Positions 2,467 to 64,000 of a stretch of 64,000 bases of DNA are shown here, piece by piece. Both the position numbers and the translations under genes were made by a program. The number at the start of each line of letters is the position of its first letter. The first letter of the stretch is position 1. The DNA is from a phage. The notes beneath the pieces are model-generated. The model was not told the origin of the DNA, searched no databases, and saw only the letters and a list, made by a program, of their open reading frames with translations. The stretch lies in sequence record OZ413489.1; one strand, 5' to 3'.

Positions 2467-4896
2467 ATGAGCATGTGGTCGTTCGACTTTGAGTCATCCG
2501 GTTTGCTGGAAGACCCAGATCTTTATTATCACTGCGGCCTGTTTAAAGAGCTGAATAAGAACCGTTTTATGCTGTTCCTTCCTCTAAATGACCGCACACA
2601 CTACTCCGAGGAGGATATAGAAAAGGCTAAGAACTTCATTCTGGCAAAGAAAACTCTTTATAAAGATTTTGAAGTTCGCATAGCAGATTTTTCAGAGTTG
2701 GAAGGTTGGCTTACAGGAAATTCTGACTGGTCACCAACAGCTTTGAACTGCCATAACTGCTACAGTTATGACTTTATGCTGATGGAAAGATTATCTGGTA
2801 TTCATTTTGATATGTTCCGTGATCCTAAATGTATGGGGACTATCAACGATCACCAGGTTAACCTGTTTGATACGTTGGCGATGAGCCGAATCTTGTGGCC
2901 TGATCGCCCTTTACCAAAAGGTTGTCCGGACTCTGTATTCAACCCGGTTACTAAGAAAATGCAGCCTGTTGGTCCTCACGGCCTTATGGCATGGGGCTAC
3001 GCCCTTGGTAACCAGAAAGTTCAAATTGATGACTGGCGCGATCTTCCGTTGTGGAAGTATGTGGATCGTGTATTCGAGGACGTTATCATCCAGGAGCTGC
3101 TCTGGAAAGAGCTGGTAGCGGAATCAAAAGGTGTATTCTACGGCAAATCTGACATGCAGAACTTTATGTACGATCCGGCCAAAGAGAAGCCGAAAGGGTT
3201 CAAGAAGATCACCTGGAAGAACGCATTACGTCGAGGCATGCTGCAGCACTTCCTGATGGAGCTGCAGGCCCGTCAGGGTGTATACTTCGACATAGATGGA
3301 GCTATTGCTTTACGTGACCGTTGCGATGCGTGGATGAAAGAAATCGCTGATCGTGTTGAACCACAACTACCTTTAAAAGAGCTGTCAATGTCTCAGCGGC
3401 CCAAGTTCCCTGAAAAGCCGTTTAACCAAGACGGGACAATCTCTAATAATGGTTGGAAATGGTTAAAAGATAAGCTTGGCTATCCTGTAGACATGAGTGC
3501 TTTAGAGTTCAAAGCCCTGCCTAAGCGAGCATTTACCTCTACAGGAGATGTCAGCAAGATGGGGATAAAATGGTGTGAAGAGATGGGCTGCAAAGACCCC
3601 GATAAGATGGCTGATTTCTTGAGAGGCTATATTAAGGGCACCTCCACACCACAACCCTTACCTAAAGAGCTGATGGATCAGGCAATAAGTGATCTGCAGC
3701 AGAAGCGAATGCCTGACTGCAAGATACCTATGAAAATCAGCAATCAGGACGACATCAAGCGATACCTAATCAGTGCTGGTTGGCTCCCAACAATGTGGAG
3801 AACTAAAGATGTAACTAAAGACAGCAAGAAGAAAGCTTTACCTGATGCAGATGTTGATGCACGAGTATATGCATATATGGACGAGCTTTTGGAGTCAGAG
3901 TATTGTGACCTAATTATCAACTTCTGGAACAAAACTGATGCTAAGTTCCAGACAACCGTGCACAAGTTCCGAAGCTTTCCTAACTCCGAAAGGATTAAAA
4001 AGGAAGTATTCGGGAAAATACGTAGAAAAGCCAGGGCACTTATTACTTCTCCGCAACTGAAAGATACGTTTGGACACCTATGCCCAAATCTTGAAAAATT
4101 GAACGGAGAGATGGCTAAAGATATCGTCTTGTGGTTATCATTGCGAAACCGCAGATCGGTCCTTGATCCAATCAAGGAGGATAAGGTTGATACTGGTCTT
4201 CTTAATCACCCACGTTTGAAGATTGACCATAAGCTTCCTGCTAAAAGCTCTGGATTAACAAACACTTCCAGACAGAAACACAGTATTTGTGCAAACATGC
4301 CTAAACCATCTCCTAAAGTAGTTATGGGTAAAGAGATGCGTAGTCTGTGGGGTGTTCCTCCAGGATACTTTGAGATCGGTATTGACGGGTCCAACTTAGA
4401 GCAGCTCATCGGGGCTTGGGGTGCCTTTGAGTTCGACAACGGCTTGTATTATGATGTTGTAAGTAACGGAGACGCACACCAAAACAATGCTGAGGCATAT
4501 ACAAAAGTGGCAGGCAGAGAGGTGTCCCGTAACGACGGTAAACCTATCACGTATGGGGTTATGTACGGGGCACAAAAAGATAAAGTTGCAGATATGCTGG
4601 ACATCTCCCCAGAGTTGGGACAAAGGGTAATCGATGCACTCTGGGATGCCAACCCAGGTCTTAAGGGGCGCAAAGAGGATCTGGAGAAATTCTGGGAAGC
4701 AACAGGTAAGAAGTTTATCTACTCTTTTGATGGTCATGCTATCTGGACCCGATCTAAACACTCTTTACTTAATGCATACCAACAAAATGGCGGTGCATCG
4801 TTGTGTGACTTAGTTGGAATACTCATGCACCACCAGATGGTGAAGCGTGGGTGGTACGATGAAGGTGTTCGTCGTATTATTTATTACCATAAATAA
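2467..4896 (+). CDS. DNA polymerase, family A (T7 / Pol I type)
   Basis: 809 aa; N-terminal exo motif FDFESSG; motif A-like IGIDGSNLEQL; motif B-like KPITYGVMYGAQ. Confidence 0.85.
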   Translation: MSMWSFDFESSGLLEDPDLYYHCGLFKELNKNRFMLFLPLNDRTHYSEEDIEKAKNFILAKKTLYKDFEVRIADFSELEGWLTGNSDWSPTALNCHNCYSYDFMLMERLSGIHFDMFRDPKCMGTINDHQVNLFDTLAMSRILWPDRPLPKGCPDSVFNPVTKKMQPVGPHGLMAWGYALGNQKVQIDDWRDLPLWKYVDRVFEDVIIQELLWKELVAESKGVFYGKSDMQNFMYDPAKEKPKGFKKITWKNALRRGMLQHFLMELQARQGVYFDIDGAIALRDRCDAWMKEIADRVEPQLPLKELSMSQRPKFPEKPFNQDGTISNNGWKWLKDKLGYPVDMSALEFKALPKRAFTSTGDVSKMGIKWCEEMGCKDPDKMADFLRGYIKGTSTPQPLPKELMDQAISDLQQKRMPDCKIPMKISNQDDIKRYLISAGWLPTMWRTKDVTKDSKKKALPDADVDARVYAYMDELLESEYCDLIINFWNKTDAKFQTTVHKFRSFPNSERIKKEVFGKIRRKARALITSPQLKDTFGHLCPNLEKLNGEMAKDIVLWLSLRNRRSVLDPIKEDKVDTGLLNHPRLKIDHKLPAKSSGLTNTSRQKHSICANMPKPSPKVVMGKEMRSLWGVPPGYFEIGIDGSNLEQLIGAWGAFEFDNGLYYDVVSNGDAHQNNAEAYTKVAGREVSRNDGKPITYGVMYGAQKDKVADMLDISPELGQRVIDALWDANPGLKGRKEDLEKFWEATGKKFIYSFDGHAIWTRSKHSLLNAYQQNGGASLCDLVGILMHHQMVKRGWYDEGVRRIIYYHK

Positions 4897-4920
4897 CATT
4901 GTGGCTTCATAGAGTAATCT

Positions 4921-5079
4921 ATGTCGAATAACCTCTTTAACTGCGGGAAGCCTAAACCTTATGGCAAGGTAATCCGCAACGAAGCGCTCAAAAGAGCGAA
5001 CGCTCAGAGGCCATTCCGAAAGGAAGTAGACCAGCAAGTGCGGTCGAAATGGGAGGATTCCTGTGGTTGCTTATCATAG
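4921..5079 (+). CDS. small hypothetical protein (52 aa)
   Basis: ATG ORF below the track size cutoff in the gap after the polymerase gene; weak RBS. Confidence 0.3.
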   Translation: MSNNLFNCGKPKPYGKVIRNEALKRANAQRPFRKEVDQQVRSKWEDSCGCLS

Positions 5080-5163
5080 GAATATGAGATGGTCCGATCC
5101 TACGTGAAAACGTATGGCTATGCACGTAATGGTGCGGGGTAGCTTAACGACCTACCTGAACTA

Positions 5164-22848: not shown

Positions 22849-22867
22849 TACAACAAGGTGCACGGTC

Positions 22868-22893
22868 AGGGGCTTAAAGCCCCTTTCTTTTTG
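22868..22893 (+). terminator. rho-independent terminator ending the rightward block
   Basis: AGGGGC-TTAAA-GCCCCT followed by TTCTTTTTG. Confidence 0.65.
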
Positions 22894-23772
22894 TCTCCTC
22901 TTTTCCTACCACAAATGGCCCCGCCTGGCAAATGGAATAATCAACAAGCCAGCAATTAACCCCACTGTACAAACATACATATAAAATAACTATTGCATAA
23001 TTTTTCATTGTGTGGTAGCAGTGCCATTTTTACACGTTTTTCCTTCCAAAATTGCACGTAATGCAGCATTTGCACAAAATTTAACCTGATGCATATCTTC
23101 AATAGCTTGTCAACAACTAAAAATCTTTATAAGTCATACACTTACATAACTACAAAAACGTTTTCTACGTGAAAAATCGAGTATAACTATAGCCGCCAGA
23201 TCTCAGAATTTACGTACGCTCGCCATTCTATAGCCTGCTAAGCATTTATTCCAACCATAGAATAACGGAATAGTCAATACCTGCATAAAATAATTATTCG
23301 TGTAAACTGCATAACATAAATCGGCCCAGGTGTCAACATTTTTCGTAAACAGTCTGGAATTGTCACGTTAGGTTACCATAAGCAGAGAAATCTTTAGTCG
23401 TCTAATGTTTACTGTACATTACTATACTGACTGGAATCATTAGATGACTAAGAGAAAGATAAGAAATAATTAATAATGTAATTATTTTACCTGTAACAAT
23501 AAGGCAACTATGCAAACGAATGGCATGGCGCGACGGAGTCGCGACATAATATAAAAGCAGTAACCATCACCCCCGTGATAGTTTGTCTGCAAACTATTAA
23601 TCAGATCATAGTTGCCTTGTATTTAGTTAATCATGACATGACAAGCAAGGCAACTATAGATCTGCTAATAGTTGCCCTGCTTTTATATTATGTCATGCTA
23701 ATTATAATCAGTGCGATTATTGTCATGTATAATTATTGTCATGCAAACGAATGGCATGGCTGATTATCGGTG

Positions 23773-23859
23773 TGTAAACAGTCAATCATGTAAATGGTTA
23801 GCATGTGAACAATCAGGAATGTAAACAATCCAGTGTGTAAACTAATAGGTGTGTAAAAG
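23773..23859. repeat. iteron array: six TGTRAAMW octamers at about 16 bp spacing
   Basis: Copies start near 23773, 23789, 23804, 23820, 23836, 23852. Confidence 0.65.
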
Positions 23860-24001
23860 TGTCATGTTGTGTCAGTTAGGTCACATTATGTCAGACAAGT
23901 TTTTCTCCTCTTTGTCAAGTGCTGCATGAAAAATTTACAAGCTTGTATGGTAGCATTTTTGCGGCCCTGTTTACATTCAGTAATGTATGTATAATCCTTG
24001 T

Positions 24002-24165
24002 TGTGTGGGCGTTTAGACGTCTAGACGGTTGGAAGTCCACAGGTCAATATCTAATCTATCGGCTGCTAACTATATCCCACACATGTGTGGGCGTTTAGAC
24101 GTCTAGACGGTTGGAAGTCCACAGGTCAATATCTAATCTATCGGCTGCTAACTATATCCCACACA
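24002..24165. repeat. perfect tandem duplication of an 82 bp unit with 8 bp terminal inverted repeats
   Basis: Unit TGTGTGGG...CCCACACA at 24002-24083 and 24084-24165; internal palindromes AGACGTCT / GTCTAGAC. Confidence 0.8.
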
Positions 24166-25461
24166 AATAGTAAGAAATATGATTGTTATATGCGTAAACT
24201 GTAACTCATGTTATCAATCCCTGTATGGATCGCCAGTGGTGCGCATAATAGGTATTATGTTAAATTGCCCGTAATGATAACAGTTCTCACAATGATAGGT
24301 ATTCTCATTCATCCACACAAAATAGGTTGCAAATGTTGTGCCACTGTGTGAACGGCCTGGCCTATTAATTTCTCTCACTGCCTCGATATTTGAGAATTGT
24401 TATAAGAATGAGAAGTATTCCCATTCCGTCCGCCTGGCAGCACTCCTGTAGGTCCTGCAAGGACTCTAGCTGAAAGCTAGACCCTTCGGGCCTCCCTGTA
24501 GGTCAGGTCAAAATCGTGGTAGAATTGGGCCTGTTCAGATATTTCTGGCTGACTCTTCAGGTCTGTGTGGGAAAAGCCAACCTCTCCGGCGGGGCAGGGG
24601 GTCATGACGGGAAAATTGCAGGTCAATTAAAAAATTTACGTGGTGTATGAAGCGCTCTTCAGGTAAGGCATGTATTATGGGATGAAACCCTCTTCAGGCA
24701 ATGATATTTGTGGGTGTGATATTTGCTGGAAAGCCAGATATGACGGGACTCCCGGCGGGGATGGGGTAGTACAGACAGGGAAAATATGAGAATGTAGTTG
24801 GGGAAATTGATCAGACAGGTAGAGTATGGAATATGTTACAAGTATGTTAAATATGGAGGTTGAATATCTGTAGGATTTGTGTGTAAAATCAAAGACTTAA
24901 GGGGTGTTGTGGTATTTTCTATAAATAATTCAAGTTTAATAGGCAATATTTGTCTCTATCCGCTTTGTGTGGTAAACAGATTCAGATTAGATTGGTTTAC
25001 AAGTGTATACATAATATACAAATTAAAGATACAAGAAACCCCCCTCCCCCTTCGGCTACCATTCACCTTTTCCTCTGACTGGTACTTAAACACTTATTCA
25101 GACTCTTCAGGTTATCACCCATATATCATATGGCAGTGACTGGTGTCCTCCGGCCCCTCTTTCGTCACCCGTCCGCTTCGCCATGCTAATGCCATAGCCA
25201 ATGGTTCGGTTGTTCACTCTGTTCACTCAGGTGTATCTCCATACCCCTTCAAACCGAAGAGAACAGAAAACCCGAATTACTCGGTAAAAGAAAAGAGAAG
25301 AACTTAATTTTATCAGGATAGGCAAGAATGTCAAGGCATGACTGCTCACTAAACAAGCAAACAGTCATGTGTGGAAGGTAAGTGATTGTGGTGGTGGGAA
25401 ATTTAGTTGAAAGATGTGTTATAGGTGCTCCCAGCACTTTAGCCGGGTAGCTAATTGTGTG

Positions 25462-58705: not shown

Positions 58706-59989
58706 TCATTCCAGAACCTCCCAAGTGTCTGGGTCAACATTTCGGACGCAGATACCGACAGGGAATTGGTAGTTGTTGTCTTCTGTCCTTGATTGATATT
58801 TGAAGGTGACAAACTTGCCGATCATTTCCTGCATCCTGTCATAGCTACGCTCCTCGTGCGTGCCTTTCATCTTCATTTTAACAATAACACCTTCCTTGTC
58901 AACACAGATAAGAACACCTTCATCATTCTTATCTTTCTCAACGTCAATAACTTTCACCTCTGCGTCGTTGAACTTTTTCCATTTCAATGCTTCAGATGTT
59001 CGCTGACCGTACTCGTATTTACCGCAGAAATTACGCATGATAGTACCTTCATATCCTTCGGACATGAATATACCAACAGATTCTTCGCAATGATCAACTG
59101 TGTACGCAAGCTCTGCGTCAACAACCTTGATATGGTCAAGCATCAGAGTGGTAACGGTATCCTCTGCATCCATAAGATCCTTGCAGCGTCCAGACTCTGT
59201 TTCTGGATCCCACCACACCTTGTCGCTAGGAATATCAAAAATGTGATACTCCAGATCGTAGCTACAGTACCCACCGTAACGCAAATCATCACGAACAGGC
59301 TCAACATCGACAGGAATATCTACCTTGTTGAAGTTTTTGTATGTTGATAAGCCTGCCTTAATTGCTGCATGACGGCGTTTTTTATCTGCCTCATAGTCTT
59401 TATCGATCTCGGCCTGAATTTCTTCCTGTGTGCGCCACCGTTTAGCAAGAGACACTATTTTCTGCAGAGGAAGACCATGAATATAGAGCTCTCCGTCGAG
59501 CTGTTTAATCCCGGTGGTTAGGTGGAAAGAGCGAAGTTGCTCCAGAAGCTTTCCTTGAATAGGGTAGGACTTATTACCACGGGAAATAAATTTAGGCTCA
59601 CCATTTTGGAAAACAACAAGCAGACGAAGGCCATCTAACTTACGCAAGATCCAGCAAGGTAATTTAAGTGCCTTGCCACGCTTCAGGTAGTCATGCACCA
59701 GCATGGGTAAAAGATCAACACCCTGCTCGCAATCTTCCATGTTTTCAACATACCCCAGACGGACTTGTTTTTCCCACTTGCTGATAGCCTCAAGCTCGGC
59801 CTGTTGCTCAGCTGTAGTCTCGTTGGCACGACCTACGTTCTTAGGTGTGCATACCGTCTCTTTGTACTGCAGTTTACCATCAAGCTTGCCAAACTCTACG
59901 ATAACCTTATCACCATCCGTGAATACTTTCCACTGTTGGTAGCTGCCATCTTTATTCAGTGCGTACAGTGTTGTTTTGATCTGATGCAT
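58706..59989 (-). CDS. ATP-dependent DNA ligase
   Basis: 427 aa; motif I KLDGLRLL, motif IV EGTIMRN, motif V KWKKF. Confidence 0.8.
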   Translation of the reverse strand: MHQIKTTLYALNKDGSYQQWKVFTDGDKVIVEFGKLDGKLQYKETVCTPKNVGRANETTAEQQAELEAISKWEKQVRLGYVENMEDCEQGVDLLPMLVHDYLKRGKALKLPCWILRKLDGLRLLVVFQNGEPKFISRGNKSYPIQGKLLEQLRSFHLTTGIKQLDGELYIHGLPLQKIVSLAKRWRTQEEIQAEIDKDYEADKKRRHAAIKAGLSTYKNFNKVDIPVDVEPVRDDLRYGGYCSYDLEYHIFDIPSDKVWWDPETESGRCKDLMDAEDTVTTLMLDHIKVVDAELAYTVDHCEESVGIFMSEGYEGTIMRNFCGKYEYGQRTSEALKWKKFNDAEVKVIDVEKDKNDEGVLICVDKEGVIVKMKMKGTHEERSYDRMQEMIGKFVTFKYQSRTEDNNYQFPVGICVRNVDPDTWEVLE

Positions 59990-60258
59990 TACTCGGCCTC
60001 TTCCTTAAAAATTTTAAACATCTCTTCTTTACTCATTACCAACCAGTCTCCCATAAAGTCAACTAGCCAATCTCCCTGGTACAAGACAAGGTTACCAAAA
60101 GGCTCGACAAGCTCACACATGCGACGAAGATCTCTGGTCCGAACAGGTGACGATGTAAACACACCTGTATCAATCCACCGTTGCAGATCAGATACTGATG
60201 AAGAGCTTCCGTCAAACTGATGTGCTTCTACAGGTTTAGCAAGATTAAATAACGGCAT
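59989..60258 (-). CDS. hypothetical protein
   Basis: 89 aa ORF. Confidence 0.45.
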   Translation of the reverse strand: MPLFNLAKPVEAHQFDGSSSSVSDLQRWIDTGVFTSSPVRTRDLRRMCELVEPFGNLVLYQGDWLVDFMGDWLVMSKEEMFKIFKEEAE

Positions 60259-60583
60259 TGCAGTCCTCCTTCTGTAGTAGGTCTTTTATAGGATAAACAA
60301 GTAAGTGTGGGTCGTAATAACGTATAGTCCTATTCTGCCACACTATGAACTTTATTACAACCAAATTTACAATATCTTTATCACCATGTAGCCCAACACA
60401 CACATTTGTCCATATTTTGTGGTTGAAGACCTTGCTATCGATGTAGATTTTAGTGTCAAACTTATCCTCCATTCTACCAATAAGTTTAACCAACTCTTTC
60501 ATCTGATCCCCAAACACAGCATCGTTTTCAAGATCTCTAGAGTGCTTGTACATAACTATCTGCCTCACTTGCATACTTTCCAC
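60245..60583 (-). CDS. hypothetical protein
   Basis: 112 aa ORF. Confidence 0.45.
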   Translation of the reverse strand: MESMQVRQIVMYKHSRDLENDAVFGDQMKELVKLIGRMEDKFDTKIYIDSKVFNHKIWTNVCVGLHGDKDIVNLVVIKFIVWQNRTIRYYDPHLLVYPIKDLLQKEDCNAVI

Positions 60584-60616
60584 AACAAGTAAAGCCGGGT
60601 AATCCCGGCTATGTTG

Positions 60617-61330
60617 TTAAATATACTCTGTTACATCCTTGAAGCTCGAAGGCTTCATGATCTTACCTTTACTGTCAAGGAATATGATAACTTTATTACC
60701 GTTGTAGAATTCTTCCTTAGCAACAAAACCTTCATATCGACCATCAAAGCGTCGTTCAAGATCTTTAATCTCCAACTCGATGAGTTGTTCAGCAGGCATA
60801 TCTGCACTGGCACCGTGTGAATACCGTAGATGGTTGACCCGTGCAAACTTGCTGTCATTCGATTTGAGAACCTTACGCATCATCCCGCACACATCGCCGC
60901 GAAGCTGGAACAGCAAAGCTGTTGACAACTCTGCTAAGCGGTAAGCGGATGCTCTTTGCTTAGAGGTGTTTTTCGCAGCGATCAGTGTATCATAGAACTC
61001 ACCGATCTTGAACTTAAGACCTCGTGGATTATCAAACAGGTTTGACCACTTTTCGTGATTGTCATTAACAAGATAAGCGGCATAACTTGTGACAACGTGA
61101 AGATCGCAGGCCTCTTTTAGCAGGTGATCTCCACCATCCCCTTTCTCCAGCTCTTCCAAAACTTCATTGAACTCTTCCTCAATGAAGCTAAGCTGTAATT
61201 CGAACGGTATGTATGATTTTTTCACTTTAGCTGCCACACGGTTCCAGTTTTCCACCCAGTTGGCAGACCAAAGGTAGTTTTCAGGTTGGGACAGTTTTTC
61301 CAGGTTGTCAATTAATTTGGTATTCAGCAT
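60617..61330 (-). CDS. MazG-like nucleotide pyrophosphohydrolase (putative)
   Basis: 237 aa; acidic helix IEEEFNEVLEELEK...KEACDLHV. Confidence 0.45.
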   Translation of the reverse strand: MLNTKLIDNLEKLSQPENYLWSANWVENWNRVAAKVKKSYIPFELQLSFIEEEFNEVLEELEKGDGGDHLLKEACDLHVVTSYAAYLVNDNHEKWSNLFDNPRGLKFKIGEFYDTLIAAKNTSKQRASAYRLAELSTALLFQLRGDVCGMMRKVLKSNDSKFARVNHLRYSHGASADMPAEQLIELEIKDLERRFDGRYEGFVAKEEFYNGNKVIIFLDSKGKIMKPSSFKDVTEYI

Positions 61331-61343
61331 TAAAGGTCTCCTT

Positions 61344-62105
61344 TTAAAGTTCCATAAAGTTTTCTACGGTCTCAATGAATGTTTTATCAGAGAAGGCATC
61401 AACCGCACCGTTAAACCAAACTGGGATGCCGCGATCCTCATACTGGTAAATATCACTACGTGAAATGCCATTCTCCTCTAGATGCTGTGAGTCGTATTTA
61501 TTAACGATCAGTAGTTTGGTTCCCTTATTGCAGGCAGGGAATAGCTCCCAGTTAAAATTGATAACTGTGTTGGAACACCCTACAAGGATAACCATATCAT
61601 TGCTTGTAAGAGAAGTCAACAGGTCATACATGTCTGTATACTTCGGAGCTACTTCTCCGAAGAACACCACATTAGGTTTAACCCAGGTATACTTTCCTGC
61701 ATCTACCTCAGAGTATCCAATGTCCTTAATGACGTCACTTCCTTCATCGTCCTCATAGACTATTTCTGGCAAATACCCGTGAACATGTAAAATATCTTCA
61801 TGTTTTACACCAGCACGCTCCAGCAAATCATCTACATTGGTGGTAAGGTTGATCACACGACCAGACCAGCGGGAATACCACTCAGCGATCCGAAGATGTG
61901 CAAGGTTAGGCTCAACACCGCCTAGAGCTACACGACGTGCATTGTAAAAGTCATGCACCTTGTAGTAGTTCTTGGCAAAGGTGTGGATGTTGCACACCTC
62001 ATCGATGCTGAAATTCTCCCACATTGCAGTGCTACCAGATCGGAAAGTGGGAATACCAGATTCAGCGCTCAAACCAGCACCGGAGATAATAATCAGTCGT
62101 CGCAT
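61344..62105 (-). CDS. Sir2-family NAD-dependent deacylase / ADP-ribosyltransferase-like protein
   Basis: 253 aa; GAGLSAESGIPTFRS, TTNVDDL, VHGY, VVFFGE, ILVGCS; no obvious zinc ribbon. Confidence 0.7.
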   Translation of the reverse strand: MRRLIIISGAGLSAESGIPTFRSGSTAMWENFSIDEVCNIHTFAKNYYKVHDFYNARRVALGGVEPNLAHLRIAEWYSRWSGRVINLTTNVDDLLERAGVKHEDILHVHGYLPEIVYEDDEGSDVIKDIGYSEVDAGKYTWVKPNVVFFGEVAPKYTDMYDLLTSLTSNDMVILVGCSNTVINFNWELFPACNKGTKLLIVNKYDSQHLEENGISRSDIYQYEDRGIPVWFNGAVDAFSDKTFIETVENFMEL

Positions 62106-62113
62106 AAGTGTCC

Positions 62114-62464
62114 TCAGTAGATGTTTTGTTTAATCTCTATTCCAAACTTTTTAAACGAGTCAGCTGCAAGCATGAATTTACGAGCCGCTGATGGGTTAGA
62201 AGTATGCACGAAAATCTTCACGTTGTCAACTACAGGGGGCTTACCAAATACAAATTTTTCCTCCAACATAGATAGGCAATCGTACCCTTCGAACACCTCT
62301 CCAAGGTCGTTGTCCATGTGCCACTCAGAAACGCGTCTGTAGAGCTTTCCCCTATCGTTAATAAAATCTATAAACTCGGAGGAATTCTTTAGCCAAATAG
62401 CGTCTGGGAGCCCATAATTTGACGGATCTCTCAAGTCATCCAGCCACACAATCAACTTCTTCAT
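62114..62464 (-). CDS. hypothetical protein
   Basis: 116 aa ORF adjacent to the Sir2-like gene. Confidence 0.45.
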   Translation of the reverse strand: MKKLIVWLDDLRDPSNYGLPDAIWLKNSSEFIDFINDRGKLYRRVSEWHMDNDLGEVFEGYDCLSMLEEKFVFGKPPVVDNVKIFVHTSNPSAARKFMLAADSFKKFGIEIKQNIY

Positions 62465-63396
62465 TGCATATAGTTCTCGTTGTGGAAATAGTAATCAAGT
62501 ATCTCACGGCGTTCCTGCTCCAGGAGGCAGTTCCACACATCTTCTGTGTAATTGTTACGAATGAAGTTTACCATGCCGTAAAACTCTTCGTCAACACGTT
62601 TAAAGATATCATCATCCCAAATCCTCCAAGCTTTACCCCTCATTACGGCCTTCCGTGCCAGGTAGTATGGAGACTTGATCTTCAGCTGCAGGTCATAAGG
62701 GTAGTAAGGCTTACGGATCATATACCCTTCGCCCCTTGTTTCTGCGGCTAATTCTTTTGCATAGCTGAACGGGATTTCACGCACAGTGTGAGGACGTTTT
62801 GCACCAAGGTATTTGGCAATCCCATCTAAAGCTGCTTCTGGTAGCATTATTCCAGAATCATTATATCTGCAACCTATCAAATATGCGCCATGGTCTTCTT
62901 GAACAATATGCGGATCTGAAGGGTGACAAATTTCAAACATGAATGTCATGTTTTCATTGCCCATAACCTTCTTGATAAGATCTAAATTACCACATTGCTC
63001 TTGGATGGTTTCCTTTGCAAGGTTACAATATGGAGAATCAAGAGACCCGGTTGTTGAGAACAATAGGTCACCTTTATGAGATGATACCACACCAAGGAAT
63101 CCGTTCTTTTTCTCTACCGCAGTCACAAGCTTATTGTCAGGCAGGTTGGTGGAGTTTTCTCCCAAGTTAAACACTTTTGTGAAGGGCCATGCCACAACAT
63201 TTCCTTCATTACCTACAACAATGCCTCGACACTCCAGTAAACGAGGGGACAAATGCCATAAATTGTTGTAAAATACTTTTCTAGCATATTTATAGATCTT
63301 TAACCCAAGATCCGGGTAATATCTACTGGTTACAAGACCTTTGTCAACTAGGTCGTCTGCATTAAAATACTTCATCATACGTTCCTCATTTGTCAT
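62461..63396 (-). CDS. RNA ligase-like nucleotidyltransferase (putative)
   Basis: 311 aa; candidate motif I EKKNGF plus EGYMIRKP and LKIKSP; from memory only. Confidence 0.45.
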   Translation of the reverse strand: MTNEERMMKYFNADDLVDKGLVTSRYYPDLGLKIYKYARKVFYNNLWHLSPRLLECRGIVVGNEGNVVAWPFTKVFNLGENSTNLPDNKLVTAVEKKNGFLGVVSSHKGDLLFSTTGSLDSPYCNLAKETIQEQCGNLDLIKKVMGNENMTFMFEICHPSDPHIVQEDHGAYLIGCRYNDSGIMLPEAALDGIAKYLGAKRPHTVREIPFSYAKELAAETRGEGYMIRKPYYPYDLQLKIKSPYYLARKAVMRGKAWRIWDDDIFKRVDEEFYGMVNFIRNNYTEDVWNCLLEQERREILDYYFHNENYMQ

Positions 63397-63439
63397 TTTG
63401 TCAGTCTATCCTGCCACACAAATAACCTAGTGTCAACAC

Positions 63440-63468
63440 TTGAAATTAACAAAACAGTTAGGTATACT
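63440..63468 (+). promoter_or_regulatory. sigma70-type promoter (TTGAAA-17-TATACT) in divergent region
   Basis: Between the leftward ligase-like gene and the rightward kinase gene. Confidence 0.5.
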
Positions 63469-63496
63469 ATCGTTGAAATTAAAACGGAGTATTACT

Positions 63497-63907
63497 ATGT
63501 CTAAAATGCTATATATCGTGCGTGGTCTACCAGGGTCTGGCAAATCAACACTGGCAAATGCGCTATCTTTAGAAGGTCTGTATCCACATTTTGAGAACGA
63601 CATGTTCTGGTACGACGATGATGGAAATTACAACTGGGATGCAAGTAAAGTAACACTTGCAGCAAAATGGTGCAAAGATAACGTAGAAGATATGATGCGT
63701 ATGGGATACGACCGTATCGTGGTAAGTAATACGTTTACAAAAGAAAAATATGTGCAAGAATATATTGACATGGCGATCAGTCATGGGTATAGTTATACCG
63801 TGATCGTGGTTGAAAACCGCCATGGTAATAAAAGCATTCATGATGTTCCAGACAGGGTTGTGGATCGTATGGAACGCCAGCTTAAAAACTGCATTAAACT
63901 TAAATGA
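63497..63907 (+). CDS. P-loop kinase, polynucleotide-kinase-like
   Basis: Track ORF 63440 (TTG) trimmed to ATG after GGAG RBS; Walker A GLPGSGKST. Confidence 0.55.
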   Translation: MSKMLYIVRGLPGSGKSTLANALSLEGLYPHFENDMFWYDDDGNYNWDASKVTLAAKWCKDNVEDMMRMGYDRIVVSNTFTKEKYVQEYIDMAISHGYSYTVIVVENRHGNKSIHDVPDRVVDRMERQLKNCIKLK

Positions 63908-63915
63908 GGAATGTA

Positions 63916-64000
63916 TGAAATACTTTGTAACAAGCGACACACACTTTCTCCACCAGCGGGTCATGGAGTTCGATTCATGTCAAAAACACAGATCTCAGTA
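63916..64000 (+). CDS. calcineurin-like metallophosphoesterase (partial, runs off window)
   Basis: N-terminus MKYFVTSDTHFLHQ resembles phosphoesterase motif I. Confidence 0.4.

Follow-up and report, generated by a model that had tools for sequence, protein, structure and literature searches.

Repair of cut RNA is a classic phage counter to host anticodon nucleases, established for phage T4, where Pnkp and the RNA ligase Rnl1 act against the nuclease PrrC. Here we describe a divergent gene cassette at the end of a 64,000-nucleotide (nt) stretch of phage DNA (record OZ413489.1; hereafter the window, meaning the whole stretch analysed), in which the gene for an RNA ligase of the Rnl1 family faces those for a P-loop kinase resembling T4 polynucleotide kinase (Pnk) and a metallophosphoesterase (MPE). 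A sequence-only reading of this DNA had proposed that kinase, phosphoesterase and ligase form a healing-and-sealing set split across three genes. Gene linkage and gene fusions support that set, although the reading passed over three further genes, for a cREC, a Sir2-family and a MazG-like protein, which follow the ligase. We favour, with a probability of about 0.65, a T4/Clostridium-style pathway of RNA healing and sealing, in which cREC, Sir2 and the MazG-like protein would be lineage-specific accessories.

The closest described system is the sirtuin-centred RNA-repair neighbourhood ‘type 2’, defined by comparative genomics by Iyer, Burroughs, Anantharaman and Aravind in 2022 (Viruses 14:1977, PMC9503650, section 3.7.3), with Escherichia phage V5 and Proteus phage Mydo as its prototypes. 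It comprises a T4-like RNA ligase, cREC, a sirtuin, a kinase, a MazG-superfamily pyrophosphatase and a calcineurin-like phosphoesterase. All six genes are present at 60617-64000 of the window and nothing material differs. The window is a close relative of phage V5 (about 98% identity to V5-type genomes). The descriptions diverge in two respects: PMC9503650 speaks of a ‘nucleotide kinase’ and of an ‘occasional’ phosphoesterase, whereas here the kinase is T4-Pnk-like in fold and ligase, kinase and MPE together appear as the core. The cassette itself is already known. Annotation of its genes dates back to the deposit of the rV5 genome, its reading as a system was published in 2022 (PMC9503650), and the records of relatives label the trio ‘RNA ligase’, ‘polynucleotide kinase’ or ‘ATPase’, and ‘phosphoesterase’; in the rV5 reference genome, ligase, kinase and phosphoesterase are gp078, gp077 and gp076.

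The last 4 kb of the window align over their full length with many Vequintavirus genomes (rV5-like Escherichia coli myoviruses) at 97-98% identity, and relatives include PMBT16 and the BASEL phage WalterGehring/Bas51. The same 4 kb are matched in 122 phage records at 90-99% identity, 118 of which cover at least 80% of the query.

With T4 Pnkp and Rnl1 (RnlA, gp63), the cassette shares an Rnl1 ligase whose lysine falls on K99, a kinase of the same fold with the catalytic Asp35, and the logic of healing and sealing. It differs in that the putative 3'-phosphatase is a separate binuclear MPE, whereas in T4 the kinase polypeptide itself carries a HAD (DxDxT) domain for this step. Here the kinase stands alone as a protein of 136 amino acids (aa), with Trp at the Arg38 position, and the ligase has 304 aa against 374, with a shorter C-terminal helical region and a score below the RnlA equivalog cutoff.

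Compared with Pnkp-Hen1 of Clostridium thermocellum and Pnkp1-Rnl-Hen1 of Capnocytophaga, the functions are spread here over three genes on two strands, although some relatives fuse kinase and ligase, and the MPE has no match to chains of the lambda-phosphatase/CthPnkp type at E<=1. In WalterGehring and rV5, the annotation of the corresponding regions lists no Hen1 methyltransferase; this negative comes from the records and not from a dedicated profile search of all open reading frames (ORFs). Set against Trl1 (ligase-kinase-CPD) with Tpt1, the cassette has neither a 2H cyclic phosphodiesterase nor Tpt1/KptA, for which cREC and Sir2 are predicted stand-ins. A split into a ‘sealing-only’ ligase and a stand-alone kinase is known from Mucorales (PMC10946435, PMC10946426).

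The ligase, kinase and phosphoesterase

The core of the cassette consists of the following features.

62461-63375, minus strand: ATP-dependent RNA ligase of the Rnl1 family, equivalent of rV5 gp078 (longest ORF to 63396, likely start ATG at 63375)
63109-63111, minus strand: codon for the lysine predicted to accept adenylate (motif I, KxNG), which is the first K of VEKKNGF
63376-63496, unstranded: divergent promoter spacer of 121 bp, separating the kinase start from the likely start of the ligase
63497-63907, plus strand: stand-alone P-loop kinase resembling T4 Pnk, predicted to phosphorylate 5'-OH polynucleotides (rV5 gp077, ‘ATPase’), with the P-loop GLPGSGKST at 63524-63550
63915-64000, plus strand: first 28 codons of a 184-aa binuclear MPE (rV5 gp076; Metallophos_2, 1.2e-6), with motif I (D-x-H) at 63936-63944

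The leftward ligase-like ORF is present at 62461-63396, where the sequence-only reading had placed it, and encodes 311 aa from its first ATG. The true start is most likely the ATG at 63375 (MKYF...), because a GAGGAA Shine-Dalgarno sequence lies 6 nt upstream of it and homologues open with MK(F/Y). Two further observations argue for this start: the stretch 63379-63396 holds three differences from WalterGehring, each of which would be non-synonymous if it were coding, and the ATG at 63378 reads ATA in that phage and ATT in L011, a locus whose ligase is 89% identical. The ligase has at least 550 homologues. It falls in Pfam RNA_lig_T4_1 (PF09511; 55.3 bits against a gathering cutoff of 28.3) and matches phrog_562 at 3e-66, and Pfam does not place it in the DNA-ligase families. 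The true DNA ligase of this phage, also ATP-dependent, is encoded 2.5 kb away, at 58706-59989.

Across 22 aligned homologues, which share 42-51% identity, nucleotidyltransferase motifs I (K-x-N-G-F), III (F-E), IV (E-G) and V (K-x-K-S) do not vary, the residues concerned being K90-x-N92-G93, E149, E217-G218 and K233/K235 in 305-aa numbering. The family profile retrieves T4 Rnl1 from the PDB at E 4e-13 across the adenylyltransferase domain, and the motif I lysine aligns with T4 K99, a position occupied by Met in the 5tt6 chain. The lysine-adenylate motif, whose absence would have spoken against the earlier reading, is present. In fold the protein is nearer to Rnl1 than to Rnl2, Rnl3, Rnl5 or DNA ligases. 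Fold assignments for both ligase and kinase were made with family profiles and predicted structures; single-sequence PDB searches with either protein returned nothing useful.

The coordinates previously given for the rightward kinase (63497-63907) are exact, and its 136-aa product is the one annotated in relatives. At least 7,988 homologues were found. Pfam assigns the generic AAA_33, with weaker matches to Zeta_toxin and CPT, and PHROGs give ‘ATPase’ and, at 3e-10, ‘polynucleotide kinase’. Invariant across the family are P-loop residues G13, G15, K16 and T18, together with Asp35, an S-N-T-F-T block and E-N-R-H-G. Against the PDB, the kinase profile finds full-length matches only to RNA or polynucleotide kinases (PSTK, Pnkp1, T4 Pnk and CthPnk), while adenylate, shikimate and gluconate kinases match over the P-loop stretch only. 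Direct alignment with the kinase domain of T4 Pnk by hhalign gave a probability of 95.8% (E 7e-9; the T4 sequence used was verified as 100% identical to 1ly1) and put D35 on the catalytic D35 and R108 on R122.

The protein has a P-loop domain of the Pnk fold, the general-base Asp and the lid Arg. Its length accounts for the kinase domain only, and a fused C-terminal HAD (DxDxT) 3'-phosphatase domain is absent. In structure it comes nearest to polynucleotide kinases and, as far as computation tells, is not the mere nucleotide kinase that would have spoken against an RNA-repair role.

The MPE gene had been read from 63916 onward. The gene is there, but the coordinate is off by one: translation from 63916 runs into stop codons, and the frame opens at 63915. 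Its 28 in-window codons, cut by the window end, are identical to the N-terminus of a 184-aa WalterGehring protein (L001:9916-10470, where a window coordinate equals the L001, or WalterGehring, coordinate + 53999). Besides the Metallophos_2 match returned by the domain search, all five motifs of binuclear MPEs are invariant in 6 homologues at 32-45% identity, namely D8-x-H10, G58-D59, G88-N89-H90 (GNH(D)), H123 and G141-H142-x-H144. Profile comparison with the PDB at E<=1 gave one strong match, the uncharacterised Aquifex protein aq_1665 (1xm7, 2.7e-18), which is its nearest solved relative. The MPE appears active but belongs to a branch other than the one with proven RNA end-healing.

The spacer between ligase and kinase had been called a shared promoter region, which is a fair description. 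The promoter scan identified a rightward site with -35 TTGAAA (63440-63445), 17 nt and -10 TATACT (63463-63468), matching at 10 of 12 positions; the 400-bp region holds 5 promoter-like sites where 1.5 are expected. Leftward, a site recognised by eye combines a perfect -35 box, TTGACA (63436-63431), a 17-nt spacer ending TGG, and an extended but weak -10 box, CAGGAT (63413-63408). The two predicted -35 boxes stand back to back with 3 bp between them. L011 keeps the divergent layout although most of its spacer has diverged, and retains the core TGTCAA-GTG-TTGAC and the TGTGTGGCA block, with CATAGT and TAATAT as its -10 boxes. The rV5 record annotates no promoter in this spacer. The TGTGTGG block of the leftward promoter was also considered as a recurring phage motif, but its 8 matches, against 3.1 expected, are scattered in the window and unconvincing.

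Linkage, fusion and the proposed pathway

Linkage was assessed in 80 IMG/VR loci carrying a ligase homologue at 36-89% identity, whose 5-kb flanks were profile-searched. These flanks contain a kinase in 64 of the 80 loci and an MPE in 62, frequencies which, together with the kinase-ligase fusions described below, suggest that the three genes act together. A second sample of five distant phages, reached through ligase homologues at 43-49% identity, shows the order MPE-ligase-kinase on one strand in every case; in four of them neighbouring genes touch or overlap, and in the fifth, PE09, they are separated by short ORFs. Upstream ORFs that carry no label in these phages were confirmed with phmmer as MPE homologues. 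Hundreds of phages carry the trio, among them phages of Escherichia, Salmonella, Klebsiella, Pseudomonas, Vibrio and Aeromonas, and on these comparisons MPE, ligase and kinase appear to be a widespread conserved core.

The Pseudomonas phage PE09 (L004 9931-13944) also carries genes for a PRPP synthetase-like and a NAPRTase-like protein (NAD+ salvage) directly downstream of its ligase and kinase; no Sir2 was found in the 8-kb flanks fetched.

Fusion joins two of the three genes. About 12 of the 80 loci have a single ORF of 426-432 aa with an N-terminal AAA_33 kinase and a C-terminal RNA_lig_T4_1 domain (IMG/VR contigs L046, L047, L051-L053, L056-L058, L061 and L063-L065), and PHROG 8238 has the same layout; the flanks fetched for the fused loci hold no MPE homologue. 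In two unrelated freshwater viral contigs, L093 and L094 (4001-7977), reached through kinase homologues, a Metallophos gene stands immediately after the kinase gene, as in the window, and the gene for an RNA ligase of the Rnl2 type (PF09414) lies 1.8 kb on. Because the kinase-MPE pair also stands beside a ligase of this second type, it is likely to be an end-healing module that serves RNA ligases of two families. This apparent travelling of the pair with two ligase families is the strongest evidence for healing and sealing.

Taken as observations, the folds and families of ligase and kinase are assigned, the catalytic motifs of all three core proteins are intact, and linkage and fusion are conserved. 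The gene set is real and intact and most likely mends RNAs cut by host defence nucleases; that the target would be tRNA cut by an anticodon nuclease is drawn by analogy from the T4 precedent. Substrates and step order are likewise those we infer. In the explanation we favour, the trio would form the promoter-proximal core of a module for healing and sealing RNA ends. Two back-to-back promoters of the sigma70 type would drive two transcription units, the rightward one supplying the T4-Pnk-like kinase and the binuclear MPE, the leftward one the Rnl1-family ligase, cREC, Sir2 and the MazG-like protein. The MPE, perhaps aided by cREC, would open the 2',3'-cyclic phosphate and remove the phosphate from the 3' end. 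The kinase would move a phosphate from NTP to the 5'-OH, with Asp35 as general base and P-loop Lys16 and the lid arginine of ENRHG assisting. The ligase would then form lysyl-AMP at the KxNG lysine, pass AMP to the 5'-phosphate and seal the break.

Several points weigh against this pathway. The ligase scores 38.6 bits against a cutoff of 242 for NCBIfam TIGR02308, the T4 RnlA equivalog, and is therefore a member of the Rnl1 family and not an RnlA equivalog. T4 Rnl1 has a tRNA-binding domain (residues ~255-374) longer than the C-terminal helical region of this ligase, and on that account tRNA specificity should not be assumed. In the hhalign alignment, kinase Trp38 and Asn78 occupy the positions of T4 Pnk Arg38 and Asp85, which we take to be essential side chains; with these replacements the substrate contacts probably differ from those of T4 Pnk.

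The MPE profile matched no lambda-phosphatase or CthPnkp chain in the PDB at E<=1, which places the protein, by profile, outside the clade in which RNA end-healing activity is established. Its weak NCBIfam matches are PdeM and YfcE, the former a ligase-associated DNA-damage-response endonuclease matched at 2.6e-4, far under cutoff. An ATP-dependent DNA ligase lies within 5 kb of the RNA ligase in 29 of the 80 loci, leaving room for a role at DNA ends, and Sir2 homologues occur in phages with no ligase nearby. Literature searches returned no experiments on RNA repair in Vequintavirinae or on members of this cassette.

Downstream genes and competing explanations

Three genes succeed the ligase in one operon, and the cREC start shares 4 nt with the ligase stop.

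62114-62464, minus strand: cREC (cyclic-phosphate-processing receiver-like) protein, 116 aa (Pfam PF20274, cREC_REC, 1.3e-14)
61344-62105, minus strand: Sir2-family protein, 253 aa (Pfam SIR2, 5.5e-27; PDB CobB 1s5p, 4e-21)
60617-61330, minus strand: MazG-like nucleotide pyrophosphohydrolase candidate (rV5 gp081), 237 aa (phrog_671, ‘nucleotide pyrophosphohydrolase’, 1.6e-21)

The cREC gene is linked to the ligase also in locus L002; the family was named and its function predicted in PMC7824862, and its activity is a prediction there as in PMC9503650. The Sir2 protein is nearest to CobB/SIRT5 and retains GAGxS, the N/D pair and HxHG, that is, the NAD pocket and catalytic His, while the four zinc-ribbon Cys of CobB/SIRT5 are replaced in the alignment by other residues. 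The MazG-like label comes from the PHROG match only, the protein having no Pfam match even at E<=5.

Around the ligase, Sir2 is found within 5 kb in 11 of the 80 loci, the MazG-like gene in 10 and cREC in 9. The three stand near ligase and kinase in varied order in phage lineages of ~145-150 kb (e.g. the PVP-SE1-like L012). Homologues of the Sir2 protein at 46-58% identity occur in 991 phage records and are common in T5-like phages. A constant linkage of Sir2 to the ligase does not hold: no ligase, kinase, MPE or cREC gene lies within 4 kb of Sir2 in Salmonella phage Stitch (Epseptimavirus) or in Phapecoctavirus Ro121lw. Sir2 and cREC thus look like lineage-limited additions to the trio.

The main alternative to healing and sealing of the T4/Clostridium style is NAD+-dependent RNA repair resembling the Trl1-Tpt1 pathway of fungi and plants, as proposed by Iyer et al. 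2022 (PMC9503650), who predict that the sirtuin removes RNA 2'-phosphates like KptA/Tpt1 and who assign opening of the cyclic phosphate, or clearance of ADP-ribose cyclic phosphate, to cREC or phosphoesterases. Under this scheme, cREC would open the 2',3'-cyclic phosphate to 3'-OH/2'-PO4 and the kinase would phosphorylate the 5' end. Sealing by the Rnl1/Trl1-like ligase would leave a junction 2'-phosphate, which Sir2 would strip with NAD+ as a Tpt1/KptA analogue; the MPE and the MazG-like protein would clear the ADP-ribose cyclic-phosphate by-product.

The operon arrangement and the recurrence of the three downstream genes in several ~145-150-kb lineages are consistent with such a pathway, as is a Sir2 that keeps its NAD pocket and catalytic His without the zinc module of protein deacylases. 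The distribution of Sir2 argues in the other direction. The gene is missing near the ligase in 69 of the 80 loci, and since most ligase-kinase-MPE loci have neither Sir2 nor cREC, the core would appear to work without them. Sir2 also stands apart from all four partner genes in both of the phages checked. The chemistry, too, is a prediction: sirtuins are not known to work on the 2'-phosphate of RNA, our literature searches for one acting like Tpt1 found none, and the activity of cREC is predicted only (PMC9503650). We consider this pathway unlikely on balance, yet the best placed of the alternatives. If true, its Sir2 would be the first sirtuin shown acting on RNA, and the pathway a bacterial-virus counterpart of eukaryotic tRNA splicing chemistry.

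Improbable, by our estimate, is the absence of any repair pathway, with the ligase acting mainly as a catalyst of tail-fibre attachment like T4 gp63 and the kinase, MPE, Sir2 and MazG-like protein as anti-defence or metabolic enzymes acting on small molecules (nucleotides, NAD+/ADP-ribose derivatives or cyclic-nucleotide immune signals). Many records do label the ligase ‘RNA ligase 1 and tail attachment protein’, but this label is copied from T4 by homology alone. The adjoining PRPP synthetase and NAPRTase genes in PE09, the weaker Zeta_toxin and CPT matches of the kinase, and the occurrence of Sir2 in other phages without the ligase would suit small-molecule roles. Against them stand the ligase motifs, invariant in the 22 homologues aligned from a family of at least 550, and a kinase that is structurally nearest to polynucleotide kinases and found fused to the ligase. 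A PADLOC search matched none of ligase, MPE, cREC, Sir2 and MazG-like protein to a defence family, and the kinase had only weak generic P-loop matches.

T4 Pnk also acts on DNA, and kinase and MPE might accordingly heal DNA ends (5'-OH, 3'-phosphate) for the nearby DNA ligase, in protection or processing of the phage genome, with the RNA ligase incidental. The DNA ligase 2.5 kb away and within 5 kb in 29 of the 80 loci, and the weak PdeM match of the MPE, lean this way; the linkage to the RNA ligase is tighter and commoner (64 and 62 of the 80 loci), the fusions join the kinase to RNA ligase and not to DNA ligase, and the kinase-MPE pair also stands beside an Rnl2-type RNA ligase. We give DNA-end healing marginally less credence than the preceding explanation, both being made less likely by the fusions and the linkage statistics. 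That the three genes are chance ORFs can be dismissed, as the 4-kb stretch is kept in 122 records and homologues are numerous.

Surroundings of the cassette and its meaning

No tRNA genes were found within the window; the tRNA cluster of this phage lies 3.4 kb past the window end. About 3.9 kb past that end, WalterGehring has a tRNA-Lys(UUU)-like gene of 97 nt (L001 13876-13972), one of seven clustered tRNA genes that lie downstream of the kinase-MPE operon. It scores 35.5 bits with the Rfam tRNA model and has an insertion of ~26 nt in the variable arm, a weakened anticodon stem and no anticodon-loop intron; ARAGORN miscalls it with a 4-base anticodon. The cassette was also considered as a protein-based splicing system for an intron-bearing phage tRNA and this was rejected, since the anticodon loop of the 97-nt tRNA is normal (7 nt, UUU). 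The gene might supply a substitute tRNA that resists nucleases.

Four window queries against the phage collection also matched 16-25 records titled ‘Campylobacter phage’ (host Campylobacter jejuni), in the region 60000-64000, one listed record having a Sir2 protein 93% identical to that of the window. Their host labels look doubtful.

Elsewhere in the window, a group I catalytic intron (Rfam RF00028, 64.7 bits, E 4e-14) lies at 4881-5116 on the plus strand, at the 3' end of an 809-aa DNA polymerase A ORF (2467-4896). The polymerase coding sequence of WalterGehring is annotated as two joined pieces with a homing endonuclease inside, which the window copy of the intron appears to lack. A perfect tandem duplication with an 82-nt unit occupies 24002-24165, its copies bounded by TGTGTGGG...CCCACACA. 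ORFs are sparse around it (about 22850-24200), where a rightward and a leftward block of genes meet head-on, and the matching WalterGehring region has no annotated genes.

What the present analysis adds to the published description is modest: support for a Pnk-like fold of the kinase, an MPE that falls outside the lambda-phosphatase clade, the counts of linked genes, the fusions, and the conserved divergent promoters. If the heal-and-seal interpretation is correct, the cassette would represent a second, widespread phage solution to RNA repair, one that combines a Pnk-like kinase, an MPE of the aq_1665 type and a short Rnl1-type ligase.

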